64,000 bases of DNA from an uncultured archaeon (GTDB taxonomy: Archaea > Thermoproteota > Nitrososphaeria > JACIWG01). This document shows positions 1 to 42,601 of this stretch, piece after piece. Where the stretch lies: positions 4,907 to 68,906 of the forward strand of contig CALHLD010000014.1 in the NCBI GenBank assembly GCA_938034445.1, in the 5' to 3' direction. Below the pieces are notes generated by a model. It saw only the letters and a list, made by a program, of their open reading frames with translations, was not told where the DNA came from and did not search any database. Position 1 is the first letter of the stretch. Every line of letters starts with the position of its first letter. The translations under genes were made by a program, and so were the position numbers.

Positions 1-1210
1 CCTCTCTGACCGGCATTCCATTAAATGGCCCACAATTTTCTTTCATTATCCCCGTATGAAATTCTTTACTATACACTATTTCTGTAGCCTTTTCAGCTTC
101 TCTATCATTCTGATCTCTTACCCTCATCTGCTCCACTATCTCAATAGCTGGATATTCTCCGAACCCTTCAACTTTAATTATTGAAATTGGTTTTATTTTG
201 TCAACTATTTTCTTTAAATTTTCGTTTGAACTTTTTTGTAAATCTCTTAACGCTAACCAATCATATGGTGCATGTGCTGGTACACTGTATACTACTCCTG
301 TACCGTATGCTGGATCAATAAATGTTGCAGGTAAAATTGGTACTTTATGGCCTGATAATGGGACAATACATTCCCTTCCTACAAGTTCTTTTCCATAAAA
401 GAACTCAATTATTTCAATTTTTCTTTCTTGTTCGACAAATTTAGTTAATGTTTCTTTGCTAACTATAAGATTCTTATCTCCCACTTTCACCTTTGCATAT
501 TCTCCATCCGGAAGTATCCAAACATTTGTAGCACCATAAATTGTTTCCGGTCTGAAGGTTGCTGCTGCTAAAAACGCATCATCAATTTTAAAAAACACAA
601 GATAAAATTCTTCAGGAGAAACTCCTTCTCCTTCTAGTCTATCATGATCCCCTGTAGGGCTTTGATCGAAGGGGCACCATACAACTGGATGGGATCCCCT
701 TATAACATACTTTTTATCCCTTAGTTTAAGATACTGCCATTCTATGAATTTACTGAATCCCTTATTATAACTTGTTGTAAAAAATTCTCTGCGCCAGTCT
801 ATAGAAAGTCCAAGTTCATATAAGGCTTCCTTGCTTACTTTTGTATAGTATTCTGCCAAGTTATAAGGTGACGTAAACTTCTCAACTTCATTAAGTGGTA
901 TTCCATCAATTTCTACGAATGCTCTAATTACTGCTGGGTCACCCTTTTTTAATCGAACTGATTGTCCAGCCACTGCTTCACCTGTCCAATGCCATGCAAA
1001 AGGAAATAAAACATTATAACCCTTCATTCTCTTGTATCTTGCAAAAGCATCTAATCTTGTGTAAGTAAATGCGTGACCAATATGTAATGGTCCATTCATG
1101 TATGGAAAAGGAGCGTTTACAAAAATTTTTTCTTTAGAATAATCTCTATCAGCTTCAAATACCTTGTCCTTTTTCCAAGCCTCTATCCATTTTTTTTCAT
1201 ATTGTAACAT
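1..1210 (-). CDS. leuS: Leucyl-tRNA synthetase, N-terminal ~400 codons (5' end of gene in window; ORF runs off the left edge)
   Basis: Own translation of the minus strand from ATG (1210..1208) is open to position 1: MLQYEKKWIEAWKKDKVFEADRDYSKEKIFVNAPFPYMNGPLHIGHAFTYTRLDAFARYKRMKGYNVLFPFAWHWTGE... Class I HIGH motif plus DWRREF, VVWCPFD, TFRPETIYGATNVW and SVPAHAPYDW blocks typical of archaeal-type LeuRS. Absent from ORF track because it is edge-truncated. Confidence 0.85.
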   Translation of the reverse strand, partial: MLQYEKKWIEAWKKDKVFEADRDYSKEKIFVNAPFPYMNGPLHIGHAFTYTRLDAFARYKRMKGYNVLFPFAWHWTGEAVAGQSVRLKKGDPAVIRAFVEIDGIPLNEVEKFTSPYNLAEYYTKVSKEALYELGLSIDWRREFFTTSYNKGFSKFIEWQYLKLRDKKYVIRGSHPVVWCPFDQSPTGDHDRLEGEGVSPEEFYLVFFKIDDAFLAAATFRPETIYGATNVWILPDGEYAKVKVGDKNLIVSKETLTKFVEQERKIEIIEFFYGKELVGRECIVPLSGHKVPILPATFIDPAYGTGVVYSVPAHAPYDWLALRDLQKSSNENLKKIVDKIKPISIIKVEGFGEYPAIEIVEQMRVRDQNDREAEKATEIVYSKEFHTGIMKENCGPFNGMPVRE

Positions 1211-3975
1211 TAACTGTTCACACTCTTCTCCTTTAAATACTCTATTAGTTTATCTTTTACTAGATTTAATTTATCAATATTTCTTCCTCCCCCTCTACCA
1301 AACCTCTTATCTCCACCAGCTGCTCCATTAAGTATCTTCGCTATAAAATTTGCAGTGTCTCTTGCGATAATATTTTTTTCCTGAGCCTGTTTGCCTGAAA
1401 ATACTACAACTTGAACAACATTGTTTAAAGGAATTAGTGCACAATAGAGTAAATCCTGTATTTCCTCTATCGCAGCACTACCGATTTCAATATGTGTGCT
1501 CTCATCTAAATCACTATCTACTATATAATACAATCTTATTCCTGAAAATGTTTCCGATTTTTCTCTAATGTAGGGTAACGAGTATTCAGATAATCTTTTT
1601 GAATACCTTTTTACCCTTTTCCTTGTCTCCTCATTTTCTCTAATAATTTTTTCAAGAGCTTCTGCTACTTTCTCTGTAGGTGTCTGCATTTTCCTTGATA
1701 TATCCTTTAATATTCCAAAAGCCTCCTGAACCTTTTCAAGAGCCGCTTTACCAGCCGCAAACACTATTCTTTCAATACCATCTTGAATATGCTCCACTTT
1801 AACTATCTTAATAAATCCAATTTCACCTGTGTTTAAAACATGTGTTCCTCCACATGCTTCCACATCATGATCTCCTATCTTTATTACCCTTATTTCTTTT
1901 CCTGGTACAACTCCACCCTGGTAAAGTCTGTAACCATACTTTCTTTCTGCCTCTAATCTAGGTAAATTATAAATTTCTACTTGAATATTCTTTCTTACTA
2001 TTTCATTAGCTATTTCCTCTATTCTTTTAATTTCTTCATCTGTAATATTTGTATAATGTGTAATGTCTAAACGTGCCTCTTTAACATCCTTTTGCGCTCC
2101 CGCTTGCCAAACATGTTCCCCTAAAACTTTCCTAGCAGCACCATTAATTATGTGTGTTGCAGTATGATGTATTGACAATTGCTCCCTCCTATCTTTATCG
2201 ACATATCCTGTAATTTCCGTGTTAGGAGGTGGCGTATACTCAACCTCATGCACAATTACCCCCCCAATCTTTTTAACATATCTGACAGCAGTCTCCCCGT
2301 CTTTCCAGGTGATTTTTCCGATATCAGACAGTTGTCCTCCACTTTCTGCATAAAATGCTGTTTTATCTAAAATCACATTATTCTTATGTACGTATATTAC
2401 TCTTGCATTAAACTGTAAAAGTTTCGGGTTTTCATAAAAAAGTTTTTCAGTAGGAGGAACCTTTTTTTCTAAAATTATTGTCTCAAGCTCATCTTTTTCT
2501 TCCACTTCTATTGTCTTTCTAGTATGCATTTTTATTATTGAAGAGAAAAAATCTTGTGGAATATTGCTGGTAAGTCCTAATCTCATTGCCTGCTCCTTGA
2601 GCTGCATAGGATGTATTCCATGTGACTCATATGCTTCGACAATCATTTCCTTAGGTACTTCCCTTTTTCCTTCTTTTAGTAAATTATTCAACTTTTTTGT
2701 AAGTATTTCCAACTCTCTCTCTAGTGTCCTCTTATATTTTTCAATTTCTATTTGCGCTAGTTTAAGTATCTCATTCCTATTAATTTCTATGTTCCTAAAA
2801 TATTTTCCCCAATAATCTATTTGATATTCTAGTAATTCAATAAGTTGGTTTTCTCGTTCAAATTCGGATAATATTCGATAAATTCTTCTTAACAACATTC
2901 TTGCCAAATATCCTGTTTTGACATTTGAAGGAACAACACCCTCAGCTAATAAGAAAATTAATGCTTTACTATGATCTAGAAGTGTACAAACTTTTTCAAA
3001 TGGCTCTATCCTCTTTATGTATTCGTTAACTGAAAAGCCAAGTCTTTTTGCTATCAACTCTCTAGTCTGCCTTGATAAGTTAGGTTTCTCCACATTTAAT
3101 GCTCCTGAAAGTTTTCCTGTTTCCACTAAAATTCTATTTTCACATTCCACTTCCATTATTTTCATAAATTTTGGTAAAAGATGTCCATATATTGCATGAA
3201 ATGCTGTTGGTGTTCCTAAACTGAGCCAAGCCCATCTCTCTAATCCATATCCTGTATCGACTGTCCGGACGATTGTGGGTACCCACTCTCCATTTTCCAT
3301 TTTATAGGACATAAAAACTAAAGTTGAGATTTCAAGCCCATCAACGACAGCTTCAACGGCTGGCCCTGCATTCCCCCCTCCTGACCAAAGGTGTTCTTTA
3401 TAGGAAATTTTATCACTTTTAACTCCGAAAACCTTTGTAATAAGTTCATGATGATATTCTACTGTTTTATCTTTCCAGTAGACTTCCTTTTCTGGGTAGT
3501 TGAATGCATGTGCTCCCCCCATTTCAAATATTGTTAGGTGTCTTCCTGAGGTGATACCTACATTATCTATGTCCTCAAATCGTAGACAAGGTTGGCTAAC
3601 AACTAAGGGGTTTGCTGGTGGCGGAATCTCACCATTTGTTACATATGGTTGAAAATCTACTATACTTGCGATTGTAACTAGAAGGTCATCTCTCCATCTA
3701 CAGACTACAGGGTAAGGTTCAATTATAGTATGCCCGTTTTTATTGAAAAAGCTGATGAATGCTTCTCTAACTCCATTTAAGTCTAGATGAAGAATTGTTG
3801 GAGCATTTCCTATAAACGTGTTTTCAACACATGGGCTTTCTCCACAAACATCAGAAATTCTTTGTGACCAAAAGTATGTACCACAAACTTTACACTTTTG
3901 CCTAATAAACCCATTCTTTTTAAAGTACTCTAACTCAAATTCTTTTGGATCAACAGCCATTACGTTGATACCCAC
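1210..3975 (-). CDS. alaS: Alanyl-tRNA synthetase
   Basis: 921-aa ORF. Class II catalytic core. Editing-domain zinc motifs HxxxH (HTATHI) and CxxxH (CGGTHV). C-terminal Gly-rich DHHA1-like tail. Length and architecture match archaeal AlaRS. Confidence 0.93.
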   Translation of the reverse strand: MGINVMAVDPKEFELEYFKKNGFIRQKCKVCGTYFWSQRISDVCGESPCVENTFIGNAPTILHLDLNGVREAFISFFNKNGHTIIEPYPVVCRWRDDLLVTIASIVDFQPYVTNGEIPPPANPLVVSQPCLRFEDIDNVGITSGRHLTIFEMGGAHAFNYPEKEVYWKDKTVEYHHELITKVFGVKSDKISYKEHLWSGGGNAGPAVEAVVDGLEISTLVFMSYKMENGEWVPTIVRTVDTGYGLERWAWLSLGTPTAFHAIYGHLLPKFMKIMEVECENRILVETGKLSGALNVEKPNLSRQTRELIAKRLGFSVNEYIKRIEPFEKVCTLLDHSKALIFLLAEGVVPSNVKTGYLARMLLRRIYRILSEFERENQLIELLEYQIDYWGKYFRNIEINRNEILKLAQIEIEKYKRTLERELEILTKKLNNLLKEGKREVPKEMIVEAYESHGIHPMQLKEQAMRLGLTSNIPQDFFSSIIKMHTRKTIEVEEKDELETIILEKKVPPTEKLFYENPKLLQFNARVIYVHKNNVILDKTAFYAESGGQLSDIGKITWKDGETAVRYVKKIGGVIVHEVEYTPPPNTEITGYVDKDRREQLSIHHTATHIINGAARKVLGEHVWQAGAQKDVKEARLDITHYTNITDEEIKRIEEIANEIVRKNIQVEIYNLPRLEAERKYGYRLYQGGVVPGKEIRVIKIGDHDVEACGGTHVLNTGEIGFIKIVKVEHIQDGIERIVFAAGKAALEKVQEAFGILKDISRKMQTPTEKVAEALEKIIRENEETRKRVKRYSKRLSEYSLPYIREKSETFSGIRLYYIVDSDLDESTHIEIGSAAIEEIQDLLYCALIPLNNVVQVVVFSGKQAQEKNIIARDTANFIAKILNGAAGGDKRFGRGGGRNIDKLNLVKDKLIEYLKEKSVNS

Positions 3976-4064
3976 ATCAACATACTAATATAGTCTTTTC
4001 TCTTTAAAAAAGGAAAATCTTTTAAATACTAGTCCATTAAGCAGTTATGCAGAGCTGATTAAAA

Positions 4065-4379
4065 ATGGAATACGTATATGCTGCATTAATATTGCATAGG
4101 CTTGGTAAGGAAATAAATGAAGAAAATGTTGCTAAAATCATTTCTGCCGCAGGAGTTGAACCTAATCAAGTAAAAATAAAAGCGCTTATTGCTGCCTTAA
4201 GTGAAGTCAATATCGATGATGCACTAAAGTCTGTCTCCTCAATTCCAATTGCGTCTGTTAGTGTAACGTCTACTACACAAGCACAGCCTAGTGAGGAAAA
4301 GAAGGAGAAAGAGAAGGAAAAGGAAAAAGAAGCCGCTCAAGAAGAGGCTGTAGAAGGACTAGCTGCCTTATTCGGGTAA
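4065..4379 (+). CDS. rpl12: Ribosomal stalk protein P1 (aL12)
   Basis: 104 aa. N-terminal [11 protein letters not shown] dimerisation helix, Ala/Ser-rich hinge, KEKEKE acidic region and terminal GLAALFG, the canonical archaeal P1 tail. Confidence 0.92.
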
Positions 4380-4380
4380 A

Positions 4381-5244
4381 TCAATTATATCCTTTTTCTT
4401 TCAATTTTTCATAAATTTGTCTCCCTATTACCTCATATTTTTGTAATAAGGTTGAAGCATTTTCTTTTGTAATATATTCTGCATTCAATGCTAGGTTATA
4501 TGCTTGCTGATGCGCTCTGTATAATATTTCTGAAATAGTTTCTTTTATAAAATAGTTTGAATTTATAGAAAGGTTTTTTGCTTCTAAGTAAGCTGACTGT
4601 ATTTCGTTTCTGATTTTGTCTAGGTCGAGTATAAGGTTATCCTCTGATAATATAATACCATCCATGAATGCAAAGGATATAGTTAGTCCTGCTTTTATTG
4701 GCTTAATGTTAAGCTTGCTCAGTAAACCTGCCAGCTTAGGTGATATTGTATCACCCTTTTTTGCTACTATGGTATCTTTTGTAATCCATATGCTTCCACT
4801 GTCAATCTTTGTTGGCACACCAACTTCCTTAAATTCACTGAGTATTGGCCCCGGTTGTAATCCTGTATTTCCCGCTGGTATTACTATATCGTCTGTAGCA
4901 ATATCTCCTGCTTTTGCAGGCAGGGGAACCTTATTTTTAGATAATAATATTGAAAGCTTAAATGGGTTCTGATTTGTGAAAATTAATAAATTTTGTCCCT
5001 TAAATTTTTCCTCTAATTTTAAATCAAAGCCAAACTTTGTTCCCATTAATGCTTTTAAAGCTATCTTATTTTTTACAACAAAAAATTTTGCATCATTCCT
5101 TAACATTTTCCTTAACATCATTAACTGTACTGAACGTACTTTCTCTAATCTAGAAATACATAAGTAACTATAATTTTGCGCATATGTTCTTATCTGAGAA
5201 AACATTTTTTCCTTCTTTAACGGGTATGTGCTTCGGCCACTCAT
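4381..5244 (-). CDS. rpl10: Ribosomal stalk protein P0 (uL10)
   Basis: 287 aa with L10 N-domain and repeated P1-binding helices. Ends ...KLKEKGYN without the acidic GLxALFG tail usually shared with P1. Confidence 0.85.
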   Translation of the reverse strand: MSGRSTYPLKKEKMFSQIRTYAQNYSYLCISRLEKVRSVQLMMLRKMLRNDAKFFVVKNKIALKALMGTKFGFDLKLEEKFKGQNLLIFTNQNPFKLSILLSKNKVPLPAKAGDIATDDIVIPAGNTGLQPGPILSEFKEVGVPTKIDSGSIWITKDTIVAKKGDTISPKLAGLLSKLNIKPIKAGLTISFAFMDGIILSEDNLILDLDKIRNEIQSAYLEAKNLSINSNYFIKETISEILYRAHQQAYNLALNAEYITKENASTLLQKYEVIGRQIYEKLKEKGYN

Positions 5245-5900
5245 TCTCTAACACCTACCAACATTTCAATCGGCTTTGACATAGTAAGTTTCAAATAAAT
5301 CTTTTTAATATTTCTTTCTCCCTCAGGTAATTTTCTTTCTATAGCATTATAGACTGCAAGTGCATTTTCAGCAATTTGCTCTTCTGTAAGTGATTCATCA
5401 CCAATTTTAGCTGCTACCGAAAGTTGTGCGCGTGTTCTTACTCTAATTGAATTCCTATGTTTTTGGATTATATCTTCTAAGGGAGTAGCTGGTGCTACTG
5501 GGATAGGCATCTTACCACTAGGTCCTAAAAATTGGCCTAAAACTTTTCCAACTCTACTCATAAGCGTTGGGTCTGCAAAAAAGAAGTCGTATTCTTTAGC
5601 TAATTTCTTAGCCTCCTTTTTATTACCTTGAAGTTTATCTAATTGTTCAGGTTCTAATACCAAATCTGCTCCTGCATTTTTAGCCTTTAATGCAAGTTCA
5701 CCTGTTCCAATAAAACATATCTTTTTAGGTGTACCTGAATAGTACGGCAATTGTATAATCTCATTGATTGTCACATTCTGTTTCTTAAAATCTATGTCTT
5801 TTAATGCGATTATAAGTTCATAGGATTGTTTAAAATTTCTTCTAGCAGCATTATTCTTTACTGTTTTTACCAATGAAATCATTTGGTTTTTTGTAATCAA
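5241..5900 (-). CDS. rpl1: Ribosomal protein uL1
   Basis: 219 aa. Overlaps P0 start by 4 nt. L1 family similarity and position in the L11-L1-L10 cluster. Confidence 0.9.
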   Translation of the reverse strand: MITKNQMISLVKTVKNNAARRNFKQSYELIIALKDIDFKKQNVTINEIIQLPYYSGTPKKICFIGTGELALKAKNAGADLVLEPEQLDKLQGNKKEAKKLAKEYDFFFADPTLMSRVGKVLGQFLGPSGKMPIPVAPATPLEDIIQKHRNSIRVRTRAQLSVAAKIGDESLTEEQIAENALAVYNAIERKLPEGERNIKKIYLKLTMSKPIEMLVGVRE

Positions 5901-5939: not shown

Positions 5940-6449
5940 TTAAAATTTTGCTTTTTGCAACCACCTATCTATTTCATTATCGTATTTTCCTTCTTTAATT
6001 TCTTTGAGAACCTGCTTCGGTGGCTTATTATCCACTTTAATACCCATACTAACACAGGATCCAAGAATCTCGCATGCTGCTGATTTTAATGTGGAAGAGT
6101 ATGATTTTTGCATGCATATACCCGCTATTTTAAGTAATTGTTCGAATGTTATGTTTCCGACAAAATCTCTTCCAGGTGTACCAGAACCTTTTTCTATTTT
6201 CGCCTCCTTTGCAAGTAAAGCTGAAATTGTAGGTATTCCTACTTTTATATTATAGGATTTCGTTTCTATATCCACTTCTATAGTTACTGGTACACGCATT
6301 CCAGCATATTCCTTAGTCATTTCATTTATTTCTTTAACAATTGCTACTACATTAACTCCTAAAGGTCCAAGTGCAGGTCCTATTGGCGGACCAGCTGTCG
6401 CCTCTCCTCCCGTTATTAAAACATTTACTGTTTTCTTTTCACCCAACAT
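5940..6449 (-). CDS. rpl11: Ribosomal protein uL11
   Basis: 169 aa. TGGEATAGPPIGPALGPLGVN motif typical of L11 N-domain. Confidence 0.92.
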   Translation of the reverse strand: MLGEKKTVNVLITGGEATAGPPIGPALGPLGVNVVAIVKEINEMTKEYAGMRVPVTIEVDIETKSYNIKVGIPTISALLAKEAKIEKGSGTPGRDFVGNITFEQLLKIAGICMQKSYSSTLKSAACEILGSCVSMGIKVDNKPPKQVLKEIKEGKYDNEIDRWLQKAKF

Positions 6450-6908: not shown

Positions 6909-7085
6909 TTACCTCCTCCCAAGGGTTAAAAAGCTTGCCACAACCTTTATTATAAAACCTATTCCTCCAACAACACCTATTCCAATAAGTATTAATTTAA
7001 GATAAAGTTTAAATTCTTCGAATGTTGTCTTTTTTGTTAAACGTAAAGTGTTTATAACAGAGTTTATAAATTCTCTAATGCTCAT
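6909..7085 (-). CDS. secE: Preprotein translocase subunit SecE (Sec61 gamma)
   Basis: 58-aa ORF below the track's 60-aa cutoff, found by own translation: MSIREFINSVINTLRLTKKTTFEEFKLYLKLILIGIGVVGGIGFIIKVVASFLTLGRR. Basic amphipathic N-terminus plus a single C-terminal TM helix. Sits immediately upstream of nusG as in most archaea. Confidence 0.8.
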   Translation of the reverse strand: MSIREFINSVINTLRLTKKTTFEEFKLYLKLILIGIGVVGGIGFIIKVVASFLTLGRR

Positions 7086-7122
7086 CAATCATCACTCATA
7101 AACCCCCTATTTTTACATATTA

Positions 7123-7938
7123 TTATACCTTTAAAAATTCTATAGAATATTTATCAAAGAATGAGATAAGTTCAGCCAATTTTTTTGACGATATACCTTT
7201 TTTATCTACAAGTGCTCTTGGTTTATTTAATAAGCTCTTTTTAAAAAGTTCAAATAAAAGCTCTTGATCAATATGTTCAAGCGCATATTTTGGAACCATA
7301 TGTCCTATAGCAACATTCTCTTTTCTTATATAATATGAGAATGCTGGCGCATAATGTCCCCCTCCAAAGCCCACAAAAGCCTCTTTTTTTGTAACTTCAT
7401 TTTGGGCCAATGTAATGTAAAGTGCTTCCGCGATCTTTTCACCCAATCTTTTATCTGACCAATGCTTTATATCACTCCCAATCTCTACAAAGAAAAGTGG
7501 AACCTCAATTTCAGTTGGTCCATGATGTGTGACCTCCAATGATACATGTAACCTCTCTTCCCACTTCCCTAGAATGTTAAATAAATTTAGAAAATATTCA
7601 GACATATACCATGGATTAGTGTATGAAATATGCTTAGCTTCTCCACCATATTTTATTTCATTTGATAAATTTCCTGTGGGGTGAACTGTTAATGAACTTA
7701 ACCCTTTGCTGCTTGTATGCTTTGACAATATAATAAGAAGATCAGCATCATATTTTATGTTTAATTTGTCTAAAAATATAGTTTCTATATCCACATAAAT
7801 AAGCTTAATTTTCTTTCTTTCAAACACCTTAAATTCTGTATCCACAGTTTTCTCAGATAATTGAAATTTTTCTATTACATTTTCTGCAATATTTAGGCTG
7901 GCTGGATCCTTATTTGATGCAACAAAAATTATTCTCAA
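7123..7938 (-). CDS. dtdA: D-aminoacyl-tRNA deacylase, archaeal type (DtdA)
   Basis: 271 aa. EVTHHGPTEIEVPLFFVEIGS and GGGHYAP blocks match the archaeal DTD family (PF04414). Confidence 0.8.
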   Translation of the reverse strand: MRIIFVASNKDPASLNIAENVIEKFQLSEKTVDTEFKVFERKKIKLIYVDIETIFLDKLNIKYDADLLIILSKHTSSKGLSSLTVHPTGNLSNEIKYGGEAKHISYTNPWYMSEYFLNLFNILGKWEERLHVSLEVTHHGPTEIEVPLFFVEIGSDIKHWSDKRLGEKIAEALYITLAQNEVTKKEAFVGFGGGHYAPAFSYYIRKENVAIGHMVPKYALEHIDQELLFELFKKSLLNKPRALVDKKGISSKKLAELISFFDKYSIEFLKV

Positions 7939-8885
7939 ATTTTGATTTCACTTTCTTCTAGAAGCAGTAAACATAATAGTCCCTTCTGCACATGTAATCT
8001 GTTTTCTGCTTGGTCAAATACTACTGAGTTTATGCTATCTATCACATCATCTGTAACCTCTTGGTTTCTATGGGCTGGTAAACAGTGCATAAAAATAAAA
8101 TTGCTTTTTGCTTGTTCAACTAACTTTCTGTTAATCTGATATTTTGGCAAAAAAATTTTAAGTCTTCTTTCTTCTTCCTTCTCTTGCCCCATGGAAATAA
8201 ATGTATCTGTGTAGATTATATCCACATCCTTTACAGCTTCCTTAGGCTCGTCAAAAAAGACTATCCTGCTTCCATTATTTTCTGCAACTTTTAAAGCAAA
8301 ATTTATCACATCAGCTGATGGCATATATTCTTTAGGACATGCAATATTAACGTCTATTCCAACATGAGCACAGCCAATAATTAATGTATTACATACATTG
8401 TTTCCATCACCAACGTATGCGAGTTTCAATCCCTTAAATTTCCCTTTTTTTTCTTTAATTGTAAAAAGGTCTGCCAATATCTGACATGGGTGATACTTAT
8501 CAGATAAACTGTTTATAACTGGCACAGATGCTGCACTTGAAAGTCTTATAATATGATCGTGAGAAAATACTCTTGCTGCAATCACATCACAATATCTTGA
8601 AAGTACTCTTGCTGTATCCTCTATTGTTTCACCCCTTCCAAGTTGTAGTTCATTTGATGTCACATCTATGCAATGTCCTCCTAGTTCATGCATCGCTTCA
8701 TTAAAGCTTATCCTTGTTCGTGTACTTGGCTTCATAAATATTGAAACCAGCGTTTTTTCTTTCAAAAGTTTAGGATATTTTCCTTTTTTCCTTTTTTCCT
8801 TCAATTTTGCAGAAATGTCAAGTATCTTTAGTATTTCATTTTGATTTAACTCCATTAAAGATAATATCGATTTTCCTTTTAACAT
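7935..8885 (-). CDS. argF: Ornithine carbamoyltransferase
   Basis: 316 aa. STRTR carbamoyl-phosphate motif and HCLP (ornithine-type, not the HPLP of ATCase). Overlaps dtdA start by 4 nt. Confidence 0.85.
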   Translation of the reverse strand: MLKGKSILSLMELNQNEILKILDISAKLKEKRKKGKYPKLLKEKTLVSIFMKPSTRTRISFNEAMHELGGHCIDVTSNELQLGRGETIEDTARVLSRYCDVIAARVFSHDHIIRLSSAASVPVINSLSDKYHPCQILADLFTIKEKKGKFKGLKLAYVGDGNNVCNTLIIGCAHVGIDVNIACPKEYMPSADVINFALKVAENNGSRIVFFDEPKEAVKDVDIIYTDTFISMGQEKEEERRLKIFLPKYQINRKLVEQAKSNFIFMHCLPAHRNQEVTDDVIDSINSVVFDQAENRLHVQKGLLCLLLLEESEIKI

Positions 8886-14119: not shown

Positions 14120-14204
14120 GCAGGGGTTGCCAAGCCAGGTCAAAGGCGCAGGGCTTAGAACCCTGTCCCGTAGGGGTTCGTGGGTTCAAATCCCACCCCC
14201 TGCA
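14120..14204 (+). tRNA. tRNA-Leu (anticodon TAG), type II with long variable arm
   Basis: Cloverleaf folded by hand: acceptor GCAGGGG/CCCCTGC, anticodon stem CAGGG/CCCTG with loop CTTAGAA, variable arm CCC-GTA-GGG, T arm GTGGG-TTCAAAT-CCCAC, discriminator A. Confidence 0.88.
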
Positions 14205-22681: not shown

Positions 22682-22763
<82 letters not shown>

Positions 22764-42501: not shown

Positions 42502-42601
42502 GCCGGGATCGCCTAGCCTGGTAGGGCGATGGCCTGGAGCCGTTTAGACTGAAAGCCATTGACTCGAAAGAGTCTTGGGGGTTCAAATCCCCCTCCCGGC
42601 G
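42502..42601 (+). tRNA. tRNA-Ser with ~14-nt intron in anticodon loop (mature loop CUGGAAA, anticodon GGA most likely)
   Basis: Acceptor GCCGGGA/TCCCGGC with discriminator G. Anticodon stem ATGGC/GCCAT enclosing 21 nt. Long variable arm GACTC-GAAA-GAGTC. T arm GGGGG-TTCAAAT-CCCCC. 100 nt total, so about 14 nt must be spliced. Confidence 0.7.

Follow-up and report, generated by a model that had tools for sequence, protein, structure and literature searches.

The stalk locus of the Nitrososphaeria very probably carries an inherited, class-wide variant of the archaeal P0/P1 system, in which the anchor protein P0 (uL10) ends without hinge and acidic tail and the gene of the tailed stalk protein P1 converges on it from the opposite strand. 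A probability of about 85% is given to this reading as a whole, including the view that the short P0 of the window (the whole stretch of 64,000 nucleotides that was analysed) is a complete, functional anchor protein and that P1 was flipped anciently. The locus of the window would be an ordinary member of its lineage, with nothing broken or rearranged locally. The trait is a variant of a known stalk system, and its wider significance is real, though modest. The genes concerned, delineated from the open reading frames and Pfam, are as follows:

1210-3975, minus strand: alaS (alanyl-tRNA synthetase), on the P0 strand and divergent from P1
4065-4379, plus strand: P1 (aP1) stalk gene, 104 amino acids, with a Lys/Glu hinge and the tail EE..GL..LFG, converging on P0
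4380, no strand: the one nucleotide, read from the raw sequence, by which TAA, the P1 stop at 4377-4379, is separated from TGA, the P0 stop at 4383-4381
4381-5244, minus strand: uL10/P0 gene, 287 amino acids, without hinge or acidic tail
5241-5900, minus strand: L1, overlapping the P0 start in ATGA
5940-6449, minus strand: L11
6453-6899, minus strand: nusG/Spt5
6909-7088, minus strand: secE

P0 is the final gene of the secE-nusG-L11-L1-P0 run, and a D-aminoacyl-tRNA deacylase (DTD) gene is also located upstream of it on the minus strand. The classical collinear order L11-L1-P0-P1 is not observed here: L11, L1 and P0 lie on the minus strand and P1 on the plus strand. This opposition of strands at 4065-4379, with stops 1 nt apart, had been noted from the sequence alone, and the ORF list, the raw sequence and Pfam all agree with it. 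The P1 product matches PF00428 (E=3.9e-12, residues 16-103) and exhibits all the features of an archaeal P1: an N-terminal dimerisation domain, a Lys/Glu/Ala hinge and the C-terminal EE..GL..LFG. It is the sole ORF of the window that ends in an acidic-tail motif. An Rfam analysis of the window identifies only three tRNAs and no known cis-regulatory RNA near the stalk locus.

The P0 protein ends in YEKLKEKGYN. It possesses both the rRNA-binding L10 domain (PF00466, E=4.8e-20, residues 9-104) and the archaea/eukaryote-specific insertion domain II (PF17777, E=5e-24, residues 110-180), and its residues 12-267 align with residues 9-269 of P. horikoshii aP0 (3a1y_G, a construct of 284 amino acids); the PDB entries of full-length archaeal P0s have 339-348 amino acids. 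A structural model predicted with AlphaFold2 from 13 homologues (mean pLDDT 85) agrees in fold with P0/uL10 structures, the top Foldseek matches being the P0s of M. jannaschii and yeast. At the C-terminal end, spine helices are predicted at residues 208-228, 237-254 and 263-283, with block pLDDT values of 80-91 over residues 201-287:

4396-4623, minus strand: coding region of the three P0 spine helices, from the AlphaFold2 model and the alignment to aP0; presumed sites for three P1 dimers

The three helices presumed to bind the P1 dimers are intact in the model, and both model and alignment place the end of the protein four residues past the third. Tailed P0s from Asgard and other lineages run about 50 residues beyond helix 3, through a hinge, an acidic run and a G-L-x-x-L-F-G motif, whereas the tail-less P0s aligned with them stop at the end of this helix or within about 10 residues of it. 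The hinge and the acidic/hydrophobic tail common to P0 and P1 are absent from the P0 of the window, with no hinge remnant, and a six-frame motif scan of the window for a hidden P0 tail retrieves the acidic tail motif only at the end of P1. Judged from the alignment, the missing portion of P0 is exactly the hinge and the tail, removed at the domain boundary. ORF, alignment and motif scan are thereby in accord with the sequence-only reading as far as the protein itself is concerned, namely 287 residues ending in KLKEKGYN without an acidic tail.

The distribution of this arrangement was established from public genomes. The nearest public P0 is 93% identical to that of the window. None of the 120 best P0 homologues (43-93% identity, 268-314 amino acids), labelled Nitrososphaeria, Nitrosocaldus and Nitrososphaerales and with hot-spring Nitrososphaeria among them, has an acidic tail, and the ending K(E/Q)KGY(N/S/T) is common among P0 homologues. 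Eighty P0 loci were fetched with their flanks, one genome per species, covering Nitrosocaldus, Nitrososphaeraceae, Nitrosocosmicus, Nitrosopumilus, Nitrosotalea and hot-spring Nitrososphaeria. The P0 stop lies inside the fetched DNA in 79 of the 80, and none of these 79 P0s has a tail. In all 70 loci with a P1 within the fetched flank, P0 and P1 occupy opposite strands; the other 10 loci end shortly past P0 or have a more distant P1. Every intact P1 ends in EE..GL..LFG, two copies (L032 and L049) being frameshifted, and in 30 related loci alaS follows P1 on the P0 strand.

The spacing between the two stop codons varies along the class. A gap of 1-5 nt recurs in six relatives with P0 identities of 61-88% (L001-L006) and in L053. 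In view of this recurrence at such sequence distances, the tight convergent junction of the window is not a product of chance. The window shares its layout with L001-L006, including an invariant TATA and a conserved leader. In many other lineages the gap ranges from -4 nt (L039 and L076) to about 150 nt, and the P0 and P1 genes of Nitrosopumilaceae and Nitrosocaldus are some 700 nt apart and have one ORF inserted between them. By sequence comparison, a Nitrososphaeria-type stalk locus is recognisable, composed of a tail-less P0 of ~281-300 amino acids, a convergent tailed P1 with a TATA and often alaS, and the window fits this type. A literature search, with most subscription journals outside its coverage, returned no account of a class-wide tail-less P0 or inverted P1; the matches on the archaeal stalk were general reviews only (PMC9932298).

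Outgroups bear on the order of events. In Ca. Bathyarchaeum CP070820 (1.56 Mb; L081) and in a second Bathyarchaeota contig, the genes DTD-mscL-secE-nusG-L11-L1-P0-P1-alaS are all on one strand. The synteny DTD-secE-nusG-L11-L1-P0-P1-alaS, the tail-less P0 (292-297 amino acids, 297 in CP070820) and the tailed P1 are as in the window, but P1 lies on the P0 strand, 35 nt downstream, mscL is found between DTD and secE, and alaS is shorter, at about 600 amino acids. Aligned with that of the window, the Bathyarchaeum P0 stops at nearly the same place, 9-10 residues further on, without hinge or tail. Because P0 is tail-less there and yet P1 is collinear in the same synteny, the loss of the tail is, by this comparison, not caused by the inversion of P1. 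The tail was lost independently of the inversion and probably before it. The argument for this order is parsimony together with a single Bathyarchaeia genus in which P1 is collinear, in a comparison of loci labelled Nitrososphaeria and Bathyarchaeia, with none labelled Aigarchaeota/Caldarchaeales, Korarchaeia or Thermoprotei.

Tail-less P0s are found beyond these loci. An exhaustive search yields, among 50%-identity representatives, many tail-less P0 clusters of ~275-300 amino acids, one of them from Bathyarchaeota, while the closest tailed P0s belong to Asgard (Odin/Baldr and an Asgardarchaeia/Heimdall-related cluster) at 36-39% identity. A profile search started from further tail-less clusters returns only proteins of 277-314 amino acids (Bathyarchaeia, Nitrososphaerota, Conexivisphaerales, Nitrososphaerales), and on four of their contigs the 5 kb around P0 contain no P1. 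Outside the 80 loci, other Bathyarchaeia, a Conexivisphaerales contig and a Nitrososphaerota MAG harbor a tail-less P0 of 281-289 amino acids and a non-adjacent P1. A tail-less P0 co-occurs, then, with a collinear P1, with a P1 located elsewhere and with a convergent P1. The C-termini of P0 are evidently labile, and sequence comparison clearly points to tail loss more than once in archaea: Woesearchaeota P0s of about 500 amino acids end in KKGTLRKK, some Bathyarchaeia P0s of 371-407 amino acids carry Lys/Pro-rich basic tails, and the Hydrothermarchaeales P0 has a Lys-rich tail. About 140 P0 representatives give a neighbour-joining tree that is star-like and poorly resolved, and tail losses are not countable on it.

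Several other explanations of the locus have been weighed. The sequence-only reading had proposed a local inversion, taken here as a recent one, that flipped P1, its breakpoint clipping the 3' end of P0. The opposite strand of P1, the 1 nt between the stops and the tail-less P0 would all be accounted for in this way. Close relatives, compared for P0 length and tail, share the length of this P0, its ..KEKGYN ending and the 1-5 nt junction, even at a P0 identity as low as 61%. Both the convergent genes and the tail-less P0 are found throughout the class, P0 ends cleanly past spine helix 3 with no hinge remnant, and Bathyarchaeum has a tail-less P0 without any inversion. The clipping of P0 by a local breakpoint is abandoned on this evidence and retains a negligible probability. 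What stands of the claim is that P1, located between P0 and alaS, is inverted relative to the collinear order of Bathyarchaeum and of classical archaea; this inversion is ancient, not local. An assembly artefact that inverted a small segment at the P0/P1 junction, which had been put forward as something to exclude, is just as remote: it has the unusually tight junction in its favor and nothing else, and P1 is opposite to P0 in 70 independent assemblies from many projects and technologies, complete Nitrosopumilus chromosomes included (OZ253671, OZ244033 and OZ241981). Against an artefact stand also the conserved promoter elements in the alaS-P1 spacer.

Alternatively, one ancient inversion at the root of the Nitrososphaeria could have turned P1 around and deleted the tail of P0 in the same event, Bathyarchaeia having lost theirs separately. 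Independent loss is made conceivable by the tail-less or modified P0 C-termini of unrelated Woesearchaeota, Hydrothermarchaeales and some Bathyarchaeia. Nevertheless, this scenario is unlikely: one earlier tail loss is more parsimonious, given that Bathyarchaeum has the full synteny with a P0 ending at about the same position without hinge or tail, and that the P0 tail is missing as well from a range of Bathyarchaeia and Nitrososphaerota in which P1 is not next to P0. Moreover, a breakpoint is not expected to trim a protein exactly at a domain boundary.

In the preferred reading, a class-wide inherited tail-less P0 facing an anciently flipped P1, P1 would be transcribed on its own. The 89 nt spacer between alaS and P1 contains three conserved elements:

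3987-4000, minus strand: conserved alaS-side element; its CTATATT, ~27 nt upstream of the ATG at 3960, is probably the TATA box of alaS
4015-4028, plus strand: putative P1 promoter AAATCTTTTAAATA, BRE/TATA-like, its 3' end 36 nt upstream of the P1 ATG
4040-4057, plus strand: conserved P1 leader block AGCAGTTATGCAGAGCTG / AGCAGnTATGCAGAGCTG, 18 nt, from the spacer alignment

In the spacer alignment of the window with L001-L006, AAATnTTTTAAATA (4015-4028) is invariant, including TTTTAAATA (4020-4028), whose end is 36 nt from the P1 ATG. The same holds on the alaS side for ATATAGTCTTTTC (3988-4000), the CTATATT of which is a likely promoter element of alaS. Around these elements the sequence diverges among the same genomes. 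More widely, 66 of the 68 Nitrososphaeria loci compared have a TATA-like heptamer whose start is 30-46 nt ahead of the P1 ATG, and the two remaining ones have it at about -48, whereas 1.3% of random 23-nt windows contain one. The P1 TATA consensus of the ammonia oxidisers is AGTTTTATATTA, and the box is kept there even with a conserved 168-residue ORF of the same orientation immediately upstream. A promoter belonging to P1 itself is very probable, as had been proposed from the motif TTTAAATA, which TTTTAAATA contains; both the frequency of the box across the class and the invariance of TTTTAAATA in the clade of the window argue for it.

The leader block is invariant at 17 of its 18 positions across the 7 genomes, with P0 identity down to 61%, and overlaps the Shine-Dalgarno-like GAGCTGAT (4052-4059). 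Two candidate features of this leader were rejected. A hairpin (CAGUU/AGCUG) is disrupted by a single substitution, U to G in L004, without compensation, and an upstream mini-ORF, ATG CAG AGC TGA (4047-4058), is not conserved, as L006 reads through it in frame.

With stops 1 nt apart, each of the two transcripts would have to end within the partner gene. Oligo-T runs are located on both sides of the junction:

4318-4328, minus strand: T5 and T4 runs on the strand complementary to the Lys/Glu hinge codons of P1, 56-66 nt past the P0 stop; possible P0-operon terminator
4393-4409, plus strand: two T5 runs, 14-30 nt past the P1 stop, in the last P0 codons; possible oligo-T terminator for P1

The T5 runs past the P1 stop are the antisense of Lys/Glu codons at the end of P0. 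In L001-L006 a T5 run is kept 13-25 nt past the P1 stop, and its presence in other lineages is inconsistent; oligo-T termination of P1 inside P0 is accordingly a weak suggestion, made at the level of the clade. The proposed P0-operon terminator is weakly backed too, since T5 runs occur at a background rate of ~4 per kb. Embedded oligo-T terminators as a class-wide feature were discarded, the runs past the P1 stop being kept only in the clade of the window.

The convergent overlap could itself be functional, transcripts terminating in the partner gene or running antisense into it and so helping to set the P1:P0 ratio. The gaps of 1-5 nt (-4 nt in L039 and L076) are indeed kept over long divergence, and in the window and L001-L006 the T5 runs 13-25 nt past the P1 stop fall inside the conserved P0 end. 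Conversely, the ~700 nt and the additional ORF between the genes of Nitrosopumilaceae and Nitrosocaldus, and the lack of T runs in many short-gap lineages, indicate that an overlap is not required class-wide. A regulatory role of the overlap is considered improbable.

The history and architecture that best fit the locus are the following. P0 of the Nitrososphaeria lineage would never have carried the hinge and acidic tail, these having been lost earlier or independently. P1 alone would then have been inverted between P0 and alaS in the ancestor of the Nitrososphaeria, together with the 168-residue ORF in the ammonia oxidisers, and would now be transcribed from its own TATA-box promoter. A separate promoter may uncouple P1, needed at 6:1, from the L11-L1-P0 transcript. 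From the predicted spine helices and an end point of P0 close to that of the engineered aP0-deltaC58, we infer that the stalk is most likely P0(P1)2(P1)2(P1)2, with six factor-recruiting tails all provided by P1. A bolder proposal is that Nitrososphaeria, and probably Bathyarchaeia, have a bacterial-style stalk, with a tail-less anchor P0 and recruitment entirely through six P1 tails, in which P1 dosage is adjusted through its own promoter, the leader block at 4040-4057 and, in some lineages, the 3' overlap. This is regarded as speculative and rather unlikely; if true, the control by promoter, leader and overlap would constitute a new autoregulatory circuit for stalk stoichiometry.

The archaeal stalk with seven identical tails, one of them on P0, is a textbook description derived from Pyrococcus. 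It fails for Nitrososphaeria, which include globally abundant ammonia-oxidising archaea, and for Bathyarchaeia, as well as for several lineages whose P0 ends early or bears an unrelated basic extension. Archaea with a tail-less P0 are natural equivalents of aP0-deltaC58, and in them the P0 tail is dispensable in vivo. Nitrososphaeria would also provide a natural case of P1 expression uncoupled from the L1-regulated operon.

In Pyrococcus, the stalk genes are collinear in a classical operon. The heptameric stalk of P. horikoshii, aP0(aP1)2(aP1)2(aP1)2 (PDB 3A1Y), shares with that of the window the L10 domain, domain II and three spine helices of P0, and the dimerisation domain, hinge and EE..GL..LFG tail of P1. 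The Pyrococcus aP0 is 342 amino acids long, and its own hinge and tail bring the number of factor-binding sites to seven (PMC7768734), whereas P0 of the window stops past helix 3 and at most six tails are expected. In hybrid-ribosome assays, activity drops only slightly when P. horikoshii aP0-deltaC58 (residues 1-284) is combined with wild-type aP1, while deletion of the aP1 tail causes a marked loss, abolishing most of the activity (PMC6125642). The end point of this engineered protein is nearly that of the natural 287-residue P0. However, aP0-deltaC58 was engineered in the laboratory and belongs to a euryarchaeal system, whereas the P0 of the window is natural and lineage-wide, with a K(E/Q)KGY ending in many members.

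The bacterial stalk bL10(bL12)4-6 resembles the one proposed here by architecture only: an anchor without a factor-binding domain of its own receives the recruiting domains from dimers bound along its C-terminal helix. The proteins themselves differ, as bL12 is not homologous to P1 and bL10 lacks insertion domain II, and the bacterial rplJ-rplL genes are collinear and co-transcribed.

The intergenic spacer upstream of the P1 start carries a short conserved element, and a second, promoter-like element precedes alaS on the opposite strand. Both are listed here.

4040-4057, + strand: P1 5' leader block, 18 nt, AGCAGTTATGCAGAGCTG, from the spacer alignment of seven genomes
3993-3987, - strand: TATA-like CTATATT, invariant, about 27 nt ahead of the probable alaS start, the ATG at 3960

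In the alignment, 17 of the 18 positions of the leader block are unchanged in the seven genomes, with P0 identity down to 61%, and the block overlaps the Shine-Dalgarno-like GAGCTGAT. It could be an operator controlling P1 dosage. A hairpin and a uORF in the block were also considered; the variation observed among the seven genomes supports neither. On the other strand, the true alaS start is probably the ATG at 3960-3958 and not the upstream GTG (3975) of the longest ORF, and the distance of the TATA-like element from this ATG suggests a leaderless alaS mRNA. The P1 frame is disrupted in two of the related loci (L032 and L049, both from long-read MAGs), where it continues into nonsense; these breaks are most likely assembly indel errors rather than biology.

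The immediate surroundings of P0 and P1 vary among lineages. In ammonia-oxidising lineages (42 of the 80 related loci), P1 is directly preceded, on its own strand, by a conserved ORF of ~168 amino acids; this ORF has no match in Pfam, and the window holds no homologue of it. In Nitrosopumilaceae, a gene for a PF03458-family membrane protein (glycine transporter/UPF0126) is inserted between P0 and P1. In Nitrosocaldus this interval holds a different ORF, 136 amino acids long. Examples from the related loci L055 and L007 are the following.

L055 7955-8464, - strand: ~168-aa ORF
L007 8015-8521, - strand: ~168-aa ORF
L055 7010-7498, - strand: PF03458 membrane protein gene

Across archaea, P0 C-termini are very diverse. 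Woesearchaeota-type P0s (P0233, P0221, P0258; about 500-580 residues) bear a Lys-rich extension of ~220 residues ending in KKGTLRKK, certain Bathyarchaeia P0s (P0132, P0137; 382-407 residues) a basic tail rich in Lys/Pro, and a Hydrothermarchaeales P0 (P0190; 350 residues) a Lys-rich tail. The acidic LFG tail is absent from all of these.

The window also contains three tRNA genes (14120-14204, 22682-22757 and 42502-42601), the last of which, 100 nt long, probably has an intron.

Comparison with the two Ca. Bathyarchaeum/Bathyarchaeota contigs, L081 and L082, involves the following genes.

L081 7468-9276: Ca. Bathyarchaeum alaS
L082 8309-10102: Ca. Bathyarchaeum alaS
Window 7123-7938, - strand: D-aminoacyl-tRNA deacylase gene
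Window 7935-8885, - strand: ornithine-carbamoyltransferase-like gene

The alaS adjoining P1 in Ca. Bathyarchaeum encodes ~600 residues, versus 921 in the window, and retains both PF01411 and PF07973. The deacylase and ornithine-carbamoyltransferase-like genes of the window overlap by 4 nt. In both the window and Bathyarchaeum, the deacylase gene precedes the secE-led cluster and shares its strand; this linkage is therefore old.
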